From the IMG/VR virus record IMGVR_UViG_2713896798_000008: a stretch of DNA of 64,000 nucleotides; one strand, given 5' to 3'. Of the stretch, positions 10,500-53,491 are shown piece after piece (the stretch's first letter is position 1; every line of letters begins with the position of its first letter). The DNA comes from a virus. Taxonomy: Duplodnaviria > Heunggongvirae > Uroviricota > Caudoviricetes. The position numbers were made by a program, and so were the translations under genes. The notes beneath the pieces were generated by a model. It did not search any database, had not been told where the DNA came from, and was given only the letters and a program-made list of their open reading frames with translations.

Positions 10500-13033
10500 C
10501 GCCTGCCTCCGGAAAATACGCCGCCATCACGCATCTGCGCCTGAATCTCATCCTGCGCCCCCTTGCGGGCCATGTCATACACCGCTTTCATCAGCTGCGG
10601 CCCTGCCTGCCCCCTGGTACCGTCGTTCTGAATCACCACGTGATTGTTCTGATTAAAATTAATGCCTTCCGTCCGCCGCATCTGCACCGGACTTCCGGCA
10701 TCGCCGACATAACCACCTTCCGCATAGCCCCGCATCAGGCGGTACAGGTTGCCGACACCAATCCGGCTGGTTGCCTCCTTCGTGAAGACAAACTCCCCGC
10801 GATGAACAATCCCCGCAGGTTCATATTTACCTCCACTCCCGGTAAAACCCCCACCGGCAAATCCCATAGCTCCGGCCACGCTACTGACAACACCCACCAT
10901 GGCCTGCTTCAGAAAAATCTCTGTCAGCATGGAGAGCACCGAACGGGTGAAACCTCGCCAGTCCTGCTCACTGCCGGTCAGCATTGCCGCCATATTCTGT
11001 GCAATACCGTCAAAGGTCTGCGTGGCTGCACTCCTGACCTGCGAAAAACTGTCCGTCGCACTTTCCGCCCACTCGCCCCAGCCGGACTTCAGCCCGGCCA
11101 TCCAGCTTCCACGAAGCTGCTCCTCCGCAGACCAGGTGTTCTTCAGTGCAGATGTGGCCTTCGCCAGCGCATCCGGATTATCACCATACACGTCACGAAG
11201 ACGCTGCGATTCCGACTCCCGCTGTGCCTGACGGTCCGTCAGCCCCCGGGCTTTTGCGCTGATTGCAGCCTGCTTCGCACTCTGCTGCTGTTCAAACCGC
11301 GCAGCCTGATTTGCCAGCTCATTCAGCCGTTTCTGGTGCTCCACCTTGTCGCCCAGCTCAGCCAGCTGGCGTTTGTACTCAAGCGTCTCTTTCTCATGGG
11401 CCAGCAGGGATTTTTCCTGCTCAGATAACTGGCGTTTCGTGGCGGCCTCTTTCAGGACCGCATACTGATTTTCCGCTTTCCATAAATCACGGCGCTGCTG
11501 GCTGATTTTCTCATTCGCACCGCTGTGCTTCTCCAGCGTCCTGAGCTCGGTTTCAAGCGCCAGCAGGGCTGCATGTGCCCGGTCTTCCTGGCGCTCACCG
11601 GCAGACACCTTCACACCGGACGGCTTTTTCTGCGTCGACTCATAATCCTTTTTTGCCGACGCCATCAGCGTGTTGTAATCCGCCTGCAGGATTTTCCCGT
11701 CTTTCAGGGCCTGATTCAGCTCCTTCTGGCGGGCGGTATATTTATCCAGCGGCGACAGCATCCGTTCATACGCCTTCTGTGCCTCTCCGGTATACTTCAG
11801 CTGTGACGCGTCACGCTCAGCCTTATCCCTTGCCGCCAGTTCACCGGCTTTTTCCATATCCGACTGCAGCGTTGCCGCTGCCAGACTCAGACGGGCATTT
11901 TCACGGTCATCCCATGCCCCCTGAAGGTTGGCACGGAAAGAGGAGGTCTTTCCCCGGCGCTGGCTCCGGCTCTGGTACCACTGCCATTTTTTATCCGCCT
12001 CATCGAATGCCTTCTGCGCACTGGCAAGCATATCCGCTGAGGATTCCGGACGACCAATATCCAGAATGGCATCCCACATCGATTTGAACGCCTTCCCTGT
12101 TTTATCCGCCCAGGTTTCCAGCGTCCCCATGTTTTCTTTCAGGCGACGGGTCTGCTCATCAAAGCCTTTCGTGGCGATATCGTTCGCCGCCTGCAATGCC
12201 CCGGCTTCATCTCCGGAACGCTGCAACTGAGCAACATACGCAATCTGCTCCGCCGTCACGTTACGGAACTGGCGTGCCATCGCCATCAGTCCCGACGTCG
12301 GGTCTGTGGTCAGCTTCCCGAAGGCTTCAGCGACCTTGTCCACCTCCACACCGGATGCAGAAGCAAAACGCGCGACACTCTGGTTGATGGCATCAAACTG
12401 TTCACCACCACGCACACCGGCATTCACCAGGGCGGCCAGTGACTCACTCGCCTGGTTAAACGTCAGCCCTGCAGCCTGTCCGGCTCTGGAGAGCGTCAGC
12501 ATGCGATCGGCAGTCAGTCCGGACTGATTGCCGGAAAGGACCAGCGTTTTATTAAATTCTGAAAGCGTGGCGTCTCCCCGGTACCAGGCATACGCCAGCG
12601 CACCTGTCGCCACCGCCAGCGAGGTGACCCCGAACATCGGCAGGCTGATCGCTCCGGCAAGCCCCCTGAACATGGGGATCATCCCGCCGAAGGAGTCCTT
12701 CACCTGACCGCCCTGTTGCAGCAGGATCAGCCAGGGATTCTGACCACCGGCAAGCTGCGTGGCCACGTCGGTGAACTGCATGGGTAGCATACGCATGGCC
12801 GCTTTATACTGCCCGACGGAAATCCCGGCTTTTTGCGCAGCCAGCGCCTGACGGCTCAGGCCCTGTTCAACGGCAGTGGCCTGTTTATTAAAAGACTGGC
12901 TGACACGCCCGGCCATCAAATCCGCAAGGTCACTGGTTTCCCCCAGTTCTTTCTTTACCCGTGCAGCCTCTTCAGAAAAACGGGTTGAATCCAGTGTAAG
13001 AACAGCTGTCAGATCGGCAAAATTACCCGCCAT
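10496..13033 (-). CDS. H: tail tape measure protein H
   Basis: 845 aa, lambda gpH-like throughout; ATG at 13033 preceded by aggagg; track start at 13051 is TTG. Confidence 0.85.
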   Translation of the reverse strand: MAGNFADLTAVLTLDSTRFSEEAARVKKELGETSDLADLMAGRVSQSFNKQATAVEQGLSRQALAAQKAGISVGQYKAAMRMLPMQFTDVATQLAGGQNPWLILLQQGGQVKDSFGGMIPMFRGLAGAISLPMFGVTSLAVATGALAYAWYRGDATLSEFNKTLVLSGNQSGLTADRMLTLSRAGQAAGLTFNQASESLAALVNAGVRGGEQFDAINQSVARFASASGVEVDKVAEAFGKLTTDPTSGLMAMARQFRNVTAEQIAYVAQLQRSGDEAGALQAANDIATKGFDEQTRRLKENMGTLETWADKTGKAFKSMWDAILDIGRPESSADMLASAQKAFDEADKKWQWYQSRSQRRGKTSSFRANLQGAWDDRENARLSLAAATLQSDMEKAGELAARDKAERDASQLKYTGEAQKAYERMLSPLDKYTARQKELNQALKDGKILQADYNTLMASAKKDYESTQKKPSGVKVSAGERQEDRAHAALLALETELRTLEKHSGANEKISQQRRDLWKAENQYAVLKEAATKRQLSEQEKSLLAHEKETLEYKRQLAELGDKVEHQKRLNELANQAARFEQQQSAKQAAISAKARGLTDRQAQRESESQRLRDVYGDNPDALAKATSALKNTWSAEEQLRGSWMAGLKSGWGEWAESATDSFSQVRSAATQTFDGIAQNMAAMLTGSEQDWRGFTRSVLSMLTEIFLKQAMVGVVSSVAGAMGFAGGGFTGSGGKYEPAGIVHRGEFVFTKEATSRIGVGNLYRLMRGYAEGGYVGDAGSPVQMRRTEGINFNQNNHVVIQNDGTRGQAGPQLMKAVYDMARKGAQDEIQAQMRDGGVFSGGRR

Positions 13034-23125: not shown

Positions 23126-23350
23126 TCAACACACTGGCTGTAATGCAGCGGATACCATGCGGCATTTAGCGGCATTCATCGTACACTCAACGGTTAGCTC
23201 TTCATTCGTGGCATTCACCTGAAAGGTCCGGGAGTGTAATTGCGTACATTTACCACTGAACGAACCTTCAACAAGAACACGACCACGCTGCAAAATACGG
23301 AACGGAATTGTTCCCTGAAAAGGCTTTACGGTTACCAGTAATTTCTTCAT
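23126..23350 (-). CDS. hypothetical small protein at the Bor position (not Bor-like)
   Basis: ATG at 23350 with SD ggaga; MKKLLVTVKPF...; no family recognised. Confidence 0.35.
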   Translation of the reverse strand: MKKLLVTVKPFQGTIPFRILQRGRVLVEGSFSGKCTQLHSRTFQVNATNEELTVECTMNAAKCRMVSAALQPVC

Positions 23351-23373: not shown

Positions 23374-23841
23374 CTAGTTAATACACTGAGTGCGGATATA
23401 TTCCTGCGCCCCTTCCAGCTGCTTCTGCATCATCATCAACCGTTCTCTGAGGATGAAATAATCCCGTTCAGCGGTGTCTGCCAGTCGGGGGCCGGTTGCA
23501 TTATCCACGCCGGAGGTGCCGGTGGCTTCACGCACGGTACCGTGGCAGGTGGCGTTGATCCGCAGGCGCTTACGACCAGCGGCAACATCAGCACGCAGAG
23601 TTTCATTTTCAGCTCTCGCATCGGCTAATTCCTTCGAGTATTTTGCATCGAGCGCAGCAACATCACGCTGACGCACCTGCATGTCAGTAATGGTGGCATT
23701 CGCCTGTTCCAGCTCTCTGGCTTTTTTATCGCGCTGCGCTTTGTAGGTGATGGCGTTATCGCGGTAATGATTAACAGCCCATAACAGACAGACGATGATG
23801 CAGATAACCAGAGCGTAAATAATCGCGGTTACTCTTCTCAC
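23374..23841 (-). CDS. Rz: spanin inner-membrane subunit Rz
   Basis: [17 protein letters not shown]...[16 protein letters not shown] matches lambda Rz; GTG start overlaps endolysin stop (GTGA). Confidence 0.85.
23436..23621 (-). CDS. Rz1: spanin outer-membrane lipoprotein Rz1 (embedded in Rz, +1 frame)
   Basis: Lipobox VVSAC and proline-rich [27 protein letters not shown] as in lambda Rz1. Confidence 0.8.
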
Positions 23842-24371
23842 TGATCTATCCCCCAACAAGCTAATGCGCTTTCCTGGTCACGACGAATAACCTGTCCGTA
23901 GCAGTTATTTGAACGTGTGCGGCAATCACGCCCACCGTCCTTAATCCACCAGCGAATCGCCTCACACGCTCCCCTGCGATCACCTGCATTAATTCGTTTA
24001 TAAAACGTCGACGGGAAACACTTACCGGGACCAATGTTGTACGGACAGAATGACGCAATCCCCGCTTTCTGGGGTTCGGTCAGTGGCACTTTGATGTTTT
24101 TCTCCACCCATGCCAGCGCCTTATCACGCTCAATGGCGTTAACCCGGTCGCATTTTTCCTTCGACAGCTTCATGCCAGGAATCACAGGCTTACCATCCAC
24201 CATGATGGCACCTCGGCAGATGGTCCAGATACCCGCACCATCACGGTATGCCGTGGTGTGGTTACCTTCCTTTTCATCCAGAAACTGGTCGAGAATGTCA
24301 GGCGCAGGCGCACCAGCGGCAATCAGCGCCAGAACGGCAGCCGACAGGCCGTATTTGATTTTGGTGTTCAT
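23838..24371 (-). CDS. SAR-type endolysin (T4-lysozyme-like, GH24)
   Basis: 177 aa; N-terminal signal-anchor [21 protein letters not shown]; near-identical to RrrD/RrrQ-type lysozymes. Confidence 0.9.
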
Positions 24372-24413
24372 GGATATTTATCAGGATTTATCGGCAACAG
24401 ATAACGAGCCAGC

Positions 24414-24974
24414 TTATATACGTCCTTTAAGATAAGTCAGTCCTGGATGAAACCAGTAAGCCGGCACTTTTTTAAAGGGCGGGTTGTCAAACTCACGAAG
24501 AAGAGCCTCCCGCACAACTGCATCCTTGTCAGCACCACTGGCCAGCGCTTCAATCTCAGCAGCTATCTGCAGATATCCCATGCAACGACCAATGCACTTC
24601 ATCAGCCCCTGCTTTTTATTGTTCTTCAGGTAATCAATGGCAAATTCAATGAGCTCCTCACTATGCTGGTGCGATGGCGGTGTTACTTTCCCATTTTCTG
24701 AGATGGTTATTTTCCCAGCATCACCGGATACAACAAAGGATGGCCGGTTACACTCCCATTCCAGCTCACTGAAATTATCATTATGAATACTGAAACACTC
24801 TGAGAGATTTCTGCTCATCACTTTCCGACAATAATCGTCAAACGCAGCAAACTGCTCATCGCGGCGTTTTTTTTCATCTTCAGAAGGCATCAGCGTCGAC
24901 AGTTTTTTATTCAGTTCAGCAATTTCATTTTCCAGACGACTGAAGCGCTGATTCATTTCTTCATGGTTCATCAC
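24414..24974 (-). CDS. hypothetical protein inserted between holin and endolysin (moron)
   Basis: 186 aa; coiled-coil-like N-terminus; occupies the slot held by ydfR in the Qin-like remnant; no family recognised. Confidence 0.5.
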   Translation of the reverse strand: MMNHEEMNQRFSRLENEIAELNKKLSTLMPSEDEKKRRDEQFAAFDDYCRKVMSRNLSECFSIHNDNFSELEWECNRPSFVVSGDAGKITISENGKVTPPSHQHSEELIEFAIDYLKNNKKQGLMKCIGRCMGYLQIAAEIEALASGADKDAVVREALLREFDNPPFKKVPAYWFHPGLTYLKGRI

Positions 24975-25181
24975 CTAATCTCCCCGGGCAGCCTTGCGAC
25001 GGTCCTCTTTAATTTTGAAATACAGGTTAGTCAGATACGTCAGCAGGCCAAACAGCAGACTCCCCAGCACACCTATCGCCACCCACTGGGACGGAGAGAC
25101 TTTGTCCAGCAGCTGCAGTAACCAGTATCCCGTCCCCACCGCTGACGTGGTGTATGACACACCTGTTGTGATTTTTTCCAT
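24975..25181 (-). CDS. S: class II holin (phage 21 S / pinholin family)
   Basis: [42 protein letters not shown]...[13 protein letters not shown] matches the S21/EssD family. Confidence 0.85.
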
Positions 25182-25230
25182 CCGATGTATGTCTCCGTCA
25201 CCGCCGACAGAAAATGAAAGTAAAGAAAAA

Positions 25231-25261: not shown

Positions 25262-25360
25262 CCAACTCCGGGAGCCGTGATTATGGCATTCAGGCTCTGC
25301 TAAAAATGCCAGATAACATTCCGGCCCCCCCCTAGTTCAGGTTATAAATGACACAATATC

Positions 25361-25480
25361 TTGACAACATCCGTCACTGTCTGTCAGAAAATATACCGCC
25401 AGGCATAAGTATCATGTGAAATCCAACTATCCTTTTGAGCCAGCACCTCTCCACCGAAAGTCAGTGCTGGCTGTTTTTTT
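25361..25480 (+). ncRNA. sRNA-like module 1 (TTGACA ... hairpin ... T-run); function unknown
   Basis: TTGACA at 25361, hairpin agccagcac/gtgctggct at about 25437-25472, then T7; paralogous to module 2. Confidence 0.25.
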
Positions 25481-25528
25481 CCTTAATAAAGCATCTGTAA
25501 CTGAAACAATCCGCATATTGATAATATA

Positions 25529-25627
25529 TTGACAGGCATCATTGCTGTCTGTGAAAAATAAGTCTCTACAAACATATAAGGCCTTTTAGCCAGCGTCTTC
25601 TTTCAGGTCAGCCGCTGGCTTTTTTTA
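25529..25627 (+). ncRNA. sRNA-like module 2 (paralogue of module 1)
   Basis: TTGACA at 25529, conserved ctgtctgt box, hairpin agccagcg/cgctggct, then T7 ending at nanS-p stop. Confidence 0.25.
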
Positions 25628-27529
25628 TTATGCTGCCGGTGCATTTATCTCCAGCACCAGACTTTCTATCTCAACGCCATACGCTGCATTTTTTGTAACA
25701 TCCGTCAGCGTCAGCGCATTCAGCCCCAGTGTCAGACTGTCTTTTATGACCTGGAATGCCGGGCCAGCCACTCCATTCAGTTTCGGAGTAACCGTGGCAC
25801 TGCCGGCGGTGAACACCAGCTCCAGCGTCTGCCAGTCGTTACCGTAATCGCCGAACTCCCCCAGCTTCGTGTTTCCGGCTTTCCTGTGATGCATCAGATT
25901 CACTCTGCCGTCAGTGGTCTGAGTGAAGTACGACATCAGGAACGGATTACCGGTACCCGTCATCGCCACACCATCAGGAACGGGAGCATCCGTATACAGA
26001 TAAATCCCCAGCCCGAACTGATTGTTGGTCAGTGCGCCTGACAGGCGGAACTTACAGGTCAGTCTGCCGCCCTGTGTCAGCAGGGTAATTGCGTCATCCA
26101 CCGGATGCGTCAGGGACCAGGTTTTATTGCTCTGCTTGGTGATCTTAAATACACCATCTGACAACTGAATTCCGCCATCCTTAATGCTCCAGCCCTGCGC
26201 AGCAGCCTCTCCGGCTGCCGGCAGCAGGGAGATTGTGCGAACGGACGTATCTGCAGACGGACCCGATGGCGTGTTGCCGCCGGGCGAGGGTTTGATTTCC
26301 GGTGCCTTACCACTGATGAAGGCTGAGGTGCGCCCGGCTGCGTTCAGAATAGCGGTTGCCATACGATCCGGAATAATGCTCCTGCGCGCCCATGAACTGA
26401 AATGTGTCGGGCGGTTTGATGATACCTGGTTTCCATTCGTTCTCGATGCCGCACCGTAATATCCTGATGCCGGAATATCCGGATCTTCTGCCGGCGCGTT
26501 AGTGGCGGTATTGACGCCGTTACCGTCTGTCATGAAGGGCACAAAATAAACGCCCTCACTCTCCCTGTTTTTATACCCGCCGTACACGGTGTCGTACTGG
26601 GTAGCGTATGTATTTTTCCAGTAATACGTCGTGTCACCACAAATCCACGGCACATCTGCAGCACTGCCACCATGGCACTGCGCGTTAAACACGGAGAGGT
26701 CAGCACGAAACTGTGTCAGCATGGCTGTAAACAGCGCAGGTTGCTGTGCGTGGGTGGCGGCGCTCATGTCAAACTCTCCCTGCATCCAGCACACCGCCAG
26801 CAACACATTTTTCGGGTTCTTCTGTAATGCAGCTTTGGTGCGCGCAATCAGGTCCTGATATAACGGTTTACCCACACCCCAGCGCGCCGAATCCTGGCTG
26901 GCCCCCGTGTCCGCACTGAATGTCCCCTCCGCGCCCTGGGTAAATGCCGAACCACCACGACAGCATGGTACCAGCAGGATCCCCGCGTTATTCGGGATAT
27001 ACGGGAGCAGTTTTTTGGCAATATGTAACCCCTGGCCGACACAGCCGTACTGCCCTTTGCTCAGGTCTGCCTTCGGATGATTCAGCGTACTCATATCCTG
27101 CACATCATGCAGGCAGTGGTCGGCCGGAATAATATCGTTATATCTGCAGGCAGCCCCACCCGGCGTCACTGTACTGCGGCGCGCCAGCTGCTTAATGCGC
27201 GGGTCCGGACGGTCATATGTCTCCGGCAGCGGAAGGCCTTCACCATATGCCATGCCGTTTGACTGCCCCGCCAGAACCACAACAAAGTAATACTCCGGGT
27301 CTCTGGTGGCGCTGATTACTGTGCCTTCTCCATCCGACGGCTTCACCACAACAGGTGTGCTCACATCACCTTCTGCGACAATCGCCTGAATAAGTGCTGC
27401 GCCATCATCCGTATACGAAGAAAACGGCCCGCCGTATGGCTGCCATCCTTCACGAATTTTTTGAGCAAGCGCATCCGCAAGGTCTGACGGCGACGCCGCC
27501 CTGACCACGTCATAGTGTTTAAATGCCAT
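25628..27529 (-). CDS. nanS-p: prophage sialate O-acetylesterase NanS-p (SGNH/SASA family)
   Basis: 633 aa; GQSN motif (VVVLAGQSNGMAYGE); position between tRNA genes and S as in Stx phages. Confidence 0.8.
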   Translation of the reverse strand: MAFKHYDVVRAASPSDLADALAQKIREGWQPYGGPFSSYTDDGAALIQAIVAEGDVSTPVVVKPSDGEGTVISATRDPEYYFVVVLAGQSNGMAYGEGLPLPETYDRPDPRIKQLARRSTVTPGGAACRYNDIIPADHCLHDVQDMSTLNHPKADLSKGQYGCVGQGLHIAKKLLPYIPNNAGILLVPCCRGGSAFTQGAEGTFSADTGASQDSARWGVGKPLYQDLIARTKAALQKNPKNVLLAVCWMQGEFDMSAATHAQQPALFTAMLTQFRADLSVFNAQCHGGSAADVPWICGDTTYYWKNTYATQYDTVYGGYKNRESEGVYFVPFMTDGNGVNTATNAPAEDPDIPASGYYGAASRTNGNQVSSNRPTHFSSWARRSIIPDRMATAILNAAGRTSAFISGKAPEIKPSPGGNTPSGPSADTSVRTISLLPAAGEAAAQGWSIKDGGIQLSDGVFKITKQSNKTWSLTHPVDDAITLLTQGGRLTCKFRLSGALTNNQFGLGIYLYTDAPVPDGVAMTGTGNPFLMSYFTQTTDGRVNLMHHRKAGNTKLGEFGDYGNDWQTLELVFTAGSATVTPKLNGVAGPAFQVIKDSLTLGLNALTLTDVTKNAAYGVEIESLVLEINAPAA

Positions 27530-28059
27530 GAATCCTCCCGGCCGGGATAATGTTGTGAGTCAGATAAGGGGCGGGCTGAAGTCCGGAAGTTACAGGACAA
27601 TGACAGAAGGAAGACTACAGCCCGCAATACGAAAAAGGCCGCGCAGTTGCGCAGCCTTATAAACCCTGGTTAAAATCCACACGATAAAAATGACAATGCA
27701 AGTATCTCATGCTGTTGCCCGAACCTACTCGGGCTTTTTTTGCATGTAAAAAGGCTCCTGCGATGAGGAGCCTGGATATATGCCTAATCTCTGTATACAG
27801 CATGATGCCGGGTGCCTCCCGGTGAATTCTGCAATGACCAGACAGAATCCGCAACTTGCCTATACAATACGCAACCAAACATCTGTCATTATGCCCCGCC
27901 GCCCAGGGGGATTCATCATGCAGGATTTTTTTAACAAACGCTCAGCATGTCAGGCAACAGTCAACTACCTGAATTGTGAGGCATTTAACATTTCACTGTC
28001 CGGTGTCTTTCCTGTAATAAAAAGCCCGCAAAAGAGAGTCAGGGCAGATAAGTGTGGTG

Positions 28060-28136
28060 TGGCGCGTTGTACTGGATTCGAACCAGTGACCGATTGCTTA
28101 GAAGGCAATTGCTCTGTCCGGCTGAGCTAACAACGC
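28060..28136 (-). tRNA. argO: tRNA-Arg (anticodon UCU)
   Basis: Cloverleaf read manually: acceptor GCGTTGT/ACAACGC, anticodon loop CTTCTAA, T-loop GGTTCGAATCC, discriminator G plus CCA; 77 nt. Confidence 0.85.
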
Positions 28137-28216: not shown

Positions 28217-28292
28217 TGGTGGCCCTTGCTGGATTTGAACCAGCGACCTGGCGATTATGAGTCACTCGCTCTCACCACTGAGCTAAAGGGCC
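28217..28292 (-). tRNA. ileZ: tRNA with CAU anticodon (Ile2/lysidine type, ileZ-like, or Met)
   Basis: Cloverleaf read manually: GGCCCTT acceptor, CTCATAA anticodon loop, T-arm GCTGGTTCAAATCCAGC, CCA; similar to E. coli ileX. Confidence 0.85.
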
Positions 28293-51935: not shown

Positions 51936-52959
<1,024 letters not shown>

Positions 52960-52963
<4 letters not shown>

Positions 52964-53271
52964 AGATATTTATGATGAGGACGCTCGTGCTTATTGGCAG
53001 GATTTTCAATCTTAAAGGAGTACTGATGCTGCAGATAAGACTCAACTTTTTCTGACAATTTTTCTGCTACTTCCAGGAAGACTTGCCGGACGCTCCTTCT
53101 GGCTGCTGCCTCATAAAACTCCAGCGCAGCTCCTTCAACACGGTCCATGGCGACATCCAGGTCAAAAATTTCACCGTCAAAGCGTTCTTTGTCCTGTAAG
53201 GCTACAGTTACCGTAACTTTATTCTCAAAATTACGGACTCCTTTCACAACCAGTTCATAGTCTTGAGTCAT
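52960..53271 (-). CDS. ydfR: YdfR-like protein between holin and lysozyme
   Basis: 103 aa; same slot as in K-12 Qin. Confidence 0.55.
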
Positions 53272-53275
53272 TGGA

Positions 53276-53491
53276 TTACTCTCCTCTCGCAGCCTTACGC
53301 CTGTCTTCTTTAATCTTGAAATAAAGATTTGTCAGATACGTCAGCAGGCCAAAAACCAGGCTACCCAGCACACCGATTGCAGCCCACTGTGACGGAGTTA
53401 CTTTATCGAGTAACTGCAATGCCCAGAAACCAGCATTACCCGCCGATGTGCCATAGGCAACACCTGTTGTTAACTTATCCATTGATTTCAT
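53276..53491 (-). CDS. essQ: class II holin (EssQ/EssD-like, dual-start MKSMDK)
   Basis: [45 protein letters not shown]... Confidence 0.85.

Follow-up and report, generated by a model that had tools for sequence, protein, structure and literature searches.

A probable headless allele of the long YdfR family in the lysis cassette of a lambdoid prophage

What does a gene do that is inserted between the holin and lysozyme genes of a prophage and belongs to no named protein family? This question is raised by an open reading frame (ORF) at positions 24,414 to 24,974 of a 64,000-nucleotide stretch of Caudoviricetes DNA (IMG/VR record IMGVR_UViG_2713896798_000008), the whole of which is referred to here as the window. 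An earlier interpretation made from the letters alone (the sequence-only reading) took it to be a gene of unknown family, unrelated to the ydfR gene in the corresponding position of a second, Qin-like lysis cassette, and viewed it as a candidate lysis modulator or superinfection/defence factor. Our comparisons point to a different identity: with high confidence, the slot ORF, as we call it, can be assigned by identity and architecture to the long YdfR family, of which it would represent a "headless" allele that retains the C-terminal two-thirds. The best overall explanation is that this headless late gene acts as a lysis accessory, a reading to which we give a probability of about one half.

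Identity of the slot ORF and its relation to YdfR

The gene under study is defined as follows.

24414..24974, minus strand: slot ORF; 186 amino acids (aa) from the GTG at 24974 or 185 aa from the ATG at 24971; stop codon TAA at 24416-24414

The ATG coincides with the start of the coding sequence in RefSeq, where the product is annotated as hypothetical protein WP_001015164.1. The same coding sequence is annotated in E. coli SCPM-O-B-9504, which is 100% identical to the window in this region, and the 185-aa form is also present in E. coli strain 10671. The predicted product is acidic and hydrophilic (21 kDa, isoelectric point 5.8). It shows no membrane-spanning segment, with a mean Kyte-Doolittle value of at most 0.95 over any 19 consecutive residues, and no signal peptide or secretion signal, suggesting a soluble protein.

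Among 5426 complete E. coli genomes, 811 contain DNA that matches the slot ORF, at a total of 1076 places, and in 278 of them a match spans at least 80% of its length. At the protein level, the headless clusters of 185 and 213 aa each stand for several hundred to about 1000 database sequences (about 1000 for the 185-aa-form clusters alone), and headless forms are present in sequenced Shiga toxin (Stx)-converting phage genomes. Pairwise comparison of the slot ORF with seven E. coli alleles by the Nei-Gojobori method gave ratios of nonsynonymous to synonymous substitution rates (dN/dS) of 0.20-0.45 over the whole gene when independent alleles were considered. Over the C-terminal 115 codons, dN/dS was 0.16-0.25 for six of the seven alleles and 0.40 for that of phage 86, and it was higher (0.4-0.9) over the first 70 codons, which encode a putative coiled coil. 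The low values for the C-terminal domain (C-domain) indicate purifying selection, and the slot ORF thus appears to be a real and conserved late gene of a lambdoid prophage.

Scans of Pfam, NCBIfam and PADLOC found no match for the slot-ORF protein, in agreement with the sequence-only reading that it belongs to no named family. However, it matches phrog_1085 (E 5e-112, 375 bits) at positions 117-296 of the 296-position profile, so that its family, although itself listed as "unknown function", is a catalogued one. The architecture of this family is illustrated by proteins of 287-296 aa annotated as "YdfR family / DUF1327 domain-containing" (for example P0035, P0007 and orf5 of Stx2 phage 86, BAF34037.1), whose genes occupy the identical P21-type holin-lysozyme slot. 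In these long YdfR proteins, a PF07041 domain is joined by a short linker to a region equivalent to the entire slot-ORF protein. This region, coiled coil and C-domain alike, is 81-90% identical to the slot-ORF protein (coverage is 62% in the case of phage 86 orf5) and contains the same invariant residues. The similarity spans the whole slot-ORF protein and thus extends beyond the coiled coil. Its start corresponds to residue ~105-117 of the long proteins, the DUF1327 head of about 100 aa and the linker being absent. In DNA alignments, the headless alleles share the start context of the long alleles, homology resumes at about codon 3, and the ~300 bp encoding the head have left no trace, in line with the absence of the head at the protein level. 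Whereas the long allele P0035 scores 138.4 bits against PF07041 (gathering threshold 25 bits), the slot-ORF protein has no match to this model even at E <= 1. Because the defining hidden Markov model match is absent, it would stand outside Pfam DUF1327 and is best described as a partial-architecture member of PHROG 1085.

The missing half of this architecture is encoded elsewhere in the window.

52960..53271, minus strand: stand-alone ydfR, encoding only the DUF1327 head, 103 aa (PF07041, E 1e-53, 179.9 bits; phrog_1085 positions 1-79, E 2e-23)

This gene lies between the holin and lysozyme genes of the Qin-like cassette (52.4-53.6 kb), and hence in the equivalent S-R slot. It had been called unrelated to the slot ORF, and the two products indeed show zero pairwise similarity and no sequence overlap, yet they match PHROG 1085 at complementary positions (1-79 and 117-296), so that the two slot occupants of the window represent head and tail, respectively, of a single modular family. 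The same applies to YdfR from the Qin prophage of E. coli K-12 (P76160; DUF1327/PF07041), which occupies the same slot, represents the other half of the PHROG 1085 architecture, does not overlap in sequence with the slot-ORF protein and is likewise uncharacterised as a phage function. In related prophages, whose slot occupants the sequence-only reading had recommended for comparison, long YdfR alleles were found in the same position, and its view of the two occupants as unrelated was not borne out.

Alignments and an AlphaFold2 (AF2) model divide the slot-ORF protein into two modules.

24780..24971, minus strand: module B, N-terminal helical hairpin/coiled coil, aa 1-64 (AF2 helices 3-27 and 31-64)
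24417..24758, minus strand: module C, conserved C-terminal domain, aa 72-185 (from alignments and AF2)

With diverged homologues added to the alignment, AF2 produced a model with a predicted local distance difference test (pLDDT) score of 72.6, comprising the helical hairpin, a low-confidence linker and an alpha/beta domain, whereas a model built on E. coli homologues only (pLDDT 50.8) was unusable. Along the hairpin of module B, pLDDT falls from about 88 to about 56. Module C, with pLDDT values of about 66-88, is predicted to form a three-stranded sheet (residues 79-97) and four helices (101-117, 123-144, 151-161 and 176-184), and nine of its residues (G128, R129, L134, Q135, A137, P165, K167, W173 and P176) are invariant among the E. 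coli, Salmonella and metagenomic homologues. Structure prediction, another follow-up that had been suggested for this gene, thus yielded a model but no fold match, as searches of PDB and BFVD returned none. A profile sequence search against PDB gave only chance-level matches to coiled-coil or low-complexity segments (best E 0.049).

Two features of the C-terminal region were considered and set aside. The motif W..PG..YLK.R[IL] was dropped as a potential membrane-targeting helix, since several homologues carry 20-30 residues beyond it, and a metal site formed by an H-x-H motif and Cys residues was left unsupported by the variation of C130 and H101.

Module B is found elsewhere fused behind either a DUF1327 head or a phrog_2571 head. 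In protein P0135, the coiled-coil module (67% identity to the slot-ORF protein) follows a head that is homologous (48% identity) to a 74-aa protein encoded in the window directly after the Rz gene (23126-23350, minus strand), which belongs to PHROG 2571, a group of unknown function. PHROG 2571 thus appears to be a second exchangeable head, encoded at the opposite edge of the same lysis cassette. Taken together, these alignments suggest that modules are shuffled in the slot and that the window allele represents one of the combinations, that of coiled coil and C-domain.

The surrounding lysis cassettes and late expression

The slot ORF is embedded in a cassette composed of the following genes.

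24975..25181, minus strand: P21-type class II holin (pinholin), 68 aa (PF04971 "Bacteriophage P21 holin S", E 7e-33; RefSeq lists the 68-aa form)
23838..24371, minus strand: lysozyme-family endolysin with a signal-anchor-release (SAR)-like N-terminus, 177 aa (PF00959 Phage_lysozyme, E 1e-23)
23374..23859, minus strand: Rz i-spanin (PF03245, E 1.4e-50)
23436-23621, minus strand: Rz1 o-spanin ORF, embedded in Rz (from the ORF list)

Its position in the S-R slot, flanked by the P21-type holin and lysozyme genes, is thereby confirmed; the SAR-like character of the endolysin is suggested by its Ala/Gly/Leu-rich N-terminus. The packing is as tight as previously described: the stop codon of the pinholin gene (TAG, 24977-24975) abuts the GTG-ATG of the slot ORF, with a GGAG a few bases upstream, and a gap of 42 nt separates the stop codon of the slot ORF from the ATG of the lysozyme gene. 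The ORF is co-oriented with the late operon, and no promoter-like or terminator-like site was found within the slot (24371-24977), which makes expression from the late transcript the natural reading. The nearest terminator-like hairpin is located at 25263-25237, upstream of the holin gene. Judged from this anatomy, the slot ORF very probably forms part of the Q-dependent late transcript and is translated along with the holin gene, and the late co-expression proposed from the sequence would fit with translational coupling between the two genes.

The G+C content of the slot ORF (0.44-0.47) is about 5 points lower than that of its flanks (0.50-0.53), a small difference. PADLOC-DB 2.0 gave no match for the window protein, its Salmonella homologues or the PHROG 1853 protein described below, and only a chance-level match for the long allele P0035 (E 0.018).

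P21-type pinholin genes usually have a dual-start motif, of which only the downstream start is present in the window (25179-25195, minus strand): the sequence reads ATA CAT CGG ATG where strain 10671 has ATG TAC CAG ATG, so that only the 68-aa form can be made. In phage 21, the longer holin isoform acts as an antiholin. Given its single-start pinholin, the window prophage may differ in the control of lysis timing.

Further upstream, the late region contains several accessory genes.

25628-27529: NanS-p-like esterase gene (DUF1737, SASA and DUF6645 domains)
27682-27741, plus strand: AgvB anti-GcvB small RNA (Rfam, 56.2 bits; gathering threshold 56)
27742-27950, minus strand: STnc100 small RNA (Rfam, 175.6 bits)
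28063-28136, minus strand: tRNA gene (Rfam)
28220-28292, minus strand: tRNA gene (Rfam)

AgvB, STnc100 and both tRNA genes are all situated upstream of the esterase gene. Between the latter and the holin gene, on the plus strand and thus antisense to the late genes, lie two tandem, mutually similar units (25355-25630), each of which combines a TTGACA-type promoter-like element with a strong hairpin and a T-run about 90-110 nt behind it. They resemble small-RNA genes, although a scan of Rfam gave no match at E <= 1; in strain 10671, this holin-upstream space is taken by DUF826 and DUF1378 ORFs instead.

The Qin-like cassette provides a second set of lysis genes around ydfR.

52430-52963, minus strand: lysozyme gene of the Qin-like cassette

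This lysozyme is of the same type as that of the first cassette (90% identity). The adjacent holin ORF ends at 53276, and its 71-aa form, beginning with MKSMDK, starts at about 53491. On the other side of the lysozyme gene is a different, i-spanin-like ORF of 165 aa (51936-52433, minus strand). In K-12 records, the gene after rrrQ is annotated as rzpQ (DUF2514). A 90-aa ORF embedded in the 165-aa ORF (51986-52258, minus strand) contains a lipoprotein-like motif (LTSC) and is possibly an o-spanin.

Distribution of the family and its convergent partner

When 1.84 billion representative proteins were searched exhaustively with HMMER, only 42 relatives were recovered, none of which is an annotated distant relative, suggesting that the family is narrow. 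Its diverged members, found in Salmonella enterica and metagenomes, measure 260-325 aa at about 30-41% identity and keep the order of head, predicted helical linker of variable length and C-domain. Their N-terminal domain is a remote relative of DUF1327 (hhalign probability 92.5%, E 4.7e-7). Wherever a locus extends far enough to reveal the neighbouring genes, the family gene lies no more than about 0.7 kb from a holin-lysozyme-Rz cassette. Its exact place varies: in Salmonella prophages, it is found just upstream of the holin gene, not between the holin and lysozyme genes, and a metagenomic contig shows the order family gene, unknown ORF, holin, lysozyme, Rz. DNA of the DUF1327/YdfR type is present in 3572 of the 5426 complete E. 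coli genomes. The long-YdfR genes of E. coli are often split, frameshifted or internally deleted, as seen in loci L002 (2539-3349), L003 (2553-3442) and L026 (1975-2963). In RefSeq, such broken genes are labelled pseudogenes or have no annotation for their tail, which in L026 is called as a separate ORF of 161 aa.

Many loci of the family contain a convergent partner, an ORF of about 105 aa that belongs to phrog_1853 (unknown function) and is arranged tail-to-tail with the family gene, sometimes overlapping its 3' end. The instances, all on the minus strand, are given in locus coordinates.

L004 2858-3172, minus strand: PHROG 1853 partner ORF
L005 3157-3471, minus strand: PHROG 1853 partner ORF
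L019 4986-5303, minus strand: PHROG 1853 partner ORF
L021 4809-5126, minus strand: PHROG 1853 partner ORF
L028 436-759, minus strand: PHROG 1853 partner ORF
L029 585-902, minus strand: PHROG 1853 partner ORF

The partner was seen in E. coli phage 86, the Stx2_12E129 phage, Salmonella prophages and two distant metagenomic contigs, with 27-77% identity, and it has no match to a Pfam, PADLOC, toxin or antitoxin family. In E. coli, it occurs at 100 places in 90 of the 5426 genomes, O104:H4 included. Neither the window nor any of the examined alleles of 185, 287 and 296 aa has this partner.

Possible roles in the lysis programme and their implications

In the reading that we prefer, the headless allele, composed of the coiled coil and the C-domain and beginning immediately behind the stop codon of the pinholin gene, would give rise to a protein that is made late from the Q-dependent transcript by translational coupling to the holin. 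This product would be cytoplasmic and would probably self-associate via its coiled coil. Protein-protein contact could then exert a non-essential, accessory effect on the lysis programme, for instance on its timing or efficiency. The heads of the long alleles would be exchangeable, and the C-domain would be the shared part that does the work or provides an anchor. The lysis-linked accessory role, taken by itself, is tentative, with the odds somewhat against it, and the label "lysis modulator" is a reasonable guess.

There are precedents for such a function. T4 RIII, P1 LydB and P2 LysA/LysB are small, non-essential late proteins that are encoded together with a holin and an endolysin, and RIII is soluble and cytoplasmic. 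The slot-ORF protein is comparable to them in position and size. They are regarded here as functional analogues only. Comparisons with PDB and BFVD revealed no similarity in sequence or fold, and the slot-ORF family is found beside two holin families. More generally, no sequence or fold relationship was detected between the slot-ORF protein and any characterised antiholin or lysis-timing regulator.

Several observations weigh against a role in lysis. The holins encoded beside the homologues belong to two different Pfam families, PF04971 and PF16080, which argues against a specific contact with the holin. In the 5426 complete E. coli genomes, the lysozyme gene is found at 10685 places, compared with 1076 for the slot ORF, so that about 90% of the cassettes with this lysozyme type lack it, and its copies are often truncated or frameshifted. 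This rarity among cassettes and the frequent disruption indicate that the slot ORF is dispensable for lysis. Its adjacency to the holin gene could, moreover, simply reflect co-inheritance within a recombination module.

Among the alternatives, the one that survives best, although we still consider it unlikely, is that the C-domain is the effector or partner module of an RNase E- or RNA-directed function that shapes the stability of late or host transcripts, with the headless allele acting either alone or together with a stand-alone YdfR in trans, such as that encoded at 52960-53271. Phage-encoded modulators of RNase E are an established class, which includes T7 gp0.7, T4 Srd and phiKZ Dip. In favour of this possibility, domain-fusion logic can be applied to head and tail, since hundreds of genomes encode them as one protein and other genomes encode them separately, and the interaction of the head with RNase E has been demonstrated: in two-hybrid and co-purification assays, YdfR of K-12 bound to the N-terminal, catalytic half of RNase E, and RNA co-eluted (PMC13232886). 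However, the RNase E-binding surface of YdfR was mapped to residues 1-72 (PMC13232886), a region that has no counterpart in the slot-ORF protein, which also lacks any similarity to YdfR. In addition, overexpression of ydfR barely altered the transcriptome (PMC13232886), and the C-domain is unlike any RNA-binding or nuclease fold. A literature search on ydfR, DUF1327, the WP accession and the PHROG returned only this RNase E interaction study, which concerns the very head that is missing here; a paper on the Q-S region of Stx phages has the S-R slot outside its coverage. An envelope-integrity hit for ydfR, cited in PMC13232886, was set aside, because a marker inserted at this position, behind the holin gene and ahead of the lysozyme gene, could be polar on the latter.

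A more ambitious proposal, which we regard as rather improbable, is that the C-domain defines an unrecognised class of cytoplasmic lysis-cassette regulators in enterobacterial lambdoid phages, which would link the lysis clock to an input from the host. These regulators would carry exchangeable heads (DUF1327 or PHROG 2571) and often a PHROG 1853 partner, with the headless allele as their minimal working form. The link could, for example, involve control of lysis-gene mRNA via RNase E, or pinholin triggering could be controlled directly.

It is also conceivable, at a low probability, that the slot ORF is the orphaned half of a two-gene module whose PHROG 1853 partner controls or neutralises the C-domain protein, by antisense transcription or in an antidote-like manner, and has been lost from the window. 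The tail-to-tail arrangement of the two genes, maintained from E. coli phages to distant metagenomic contigs at the identities given above, would fit with this notion. However, the partner is found at only 100 places, as opposed to 1076 for the family gene, which is maintained without it in all of the examined 185-, 287- and 296-aa alleles, and the lack of a toxin or antitoxin family match gives no indication of an antidote system.

A similarly small chance can be assigned to the possibility that the slot ORF is a decaying, functionless remnant, i.e. an N-terminally deleted long-YdfR gene with a chance open frame. As would be expected from an in-frame deletion, its opening codons ATG AAC can be aligned with the beginning of the long alleles, after which a gap of ~100 codons follows, and truncated or frameshifted copies exist in many genomes. 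Decay is, however, difficult to reconcile with a dN/dS of 0.20-0.23 between independent 185-aa alleles, a frame that is intact in clusters totalling about 1000 sequences, and the existence of a 213-aa lineage with the same headless start in sequenced Stx2a-converting phage genomes. Furthermore, silent sites have diverged further in the coiled-coil part than in the C-domain, which implies that any deletion is not recent.

Finally, the possibility that the gene is a moron, contributing to lysogenic conversion or, as suggested in the sequence-only reading, to superinfection exclusion or anti-phage defence, is the least plausible and finds little room here, because the slightly lower G+C content, the accessory cargo nearby (the NanS-p-like esterase gene, AgvB and the tRNAs) and the variable slot content among prophages are outweighed by a late orientation without a promoter or terminator of its own, directly abutting the co-oriented holin gene, such that the product would appear only once the cell is committed to lysis, and by the absence of PADLOC model matches and of membrane or secretion signals.

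The headless late gene acting as a lysis accessory thus remains the interpretation that we favour. The sequence as such is already catalogued in RefSeq and PHROGs as an uncharacterised protein; what is added here is its head/tail link to ydfR, the conserved C-domain, the constant position next to the holin gene and the facultative convergent partner. The slot ORF is an ordinary mosaic prophage gene, and its assignment is a modest, clarifying result with no sign of a new kind of system. Nevertheless, viewing the 186-aa gene and ydfR as halves of one protein turns two orphan annotations into one question, for which natural split, fused and headless alleles are available for genetics. Should the family prove to have no phenotype, it would represent one more dispensable mosaic module. 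Stx-converting prophages and their relatives contain both the C-domain gene and the YdfR genes within their lysis cassettes or next to them. An influence of the family on lysis timing or on the fate of late mRNA, if there is one, would affect both the phage burst and the release of Shiga toxin.
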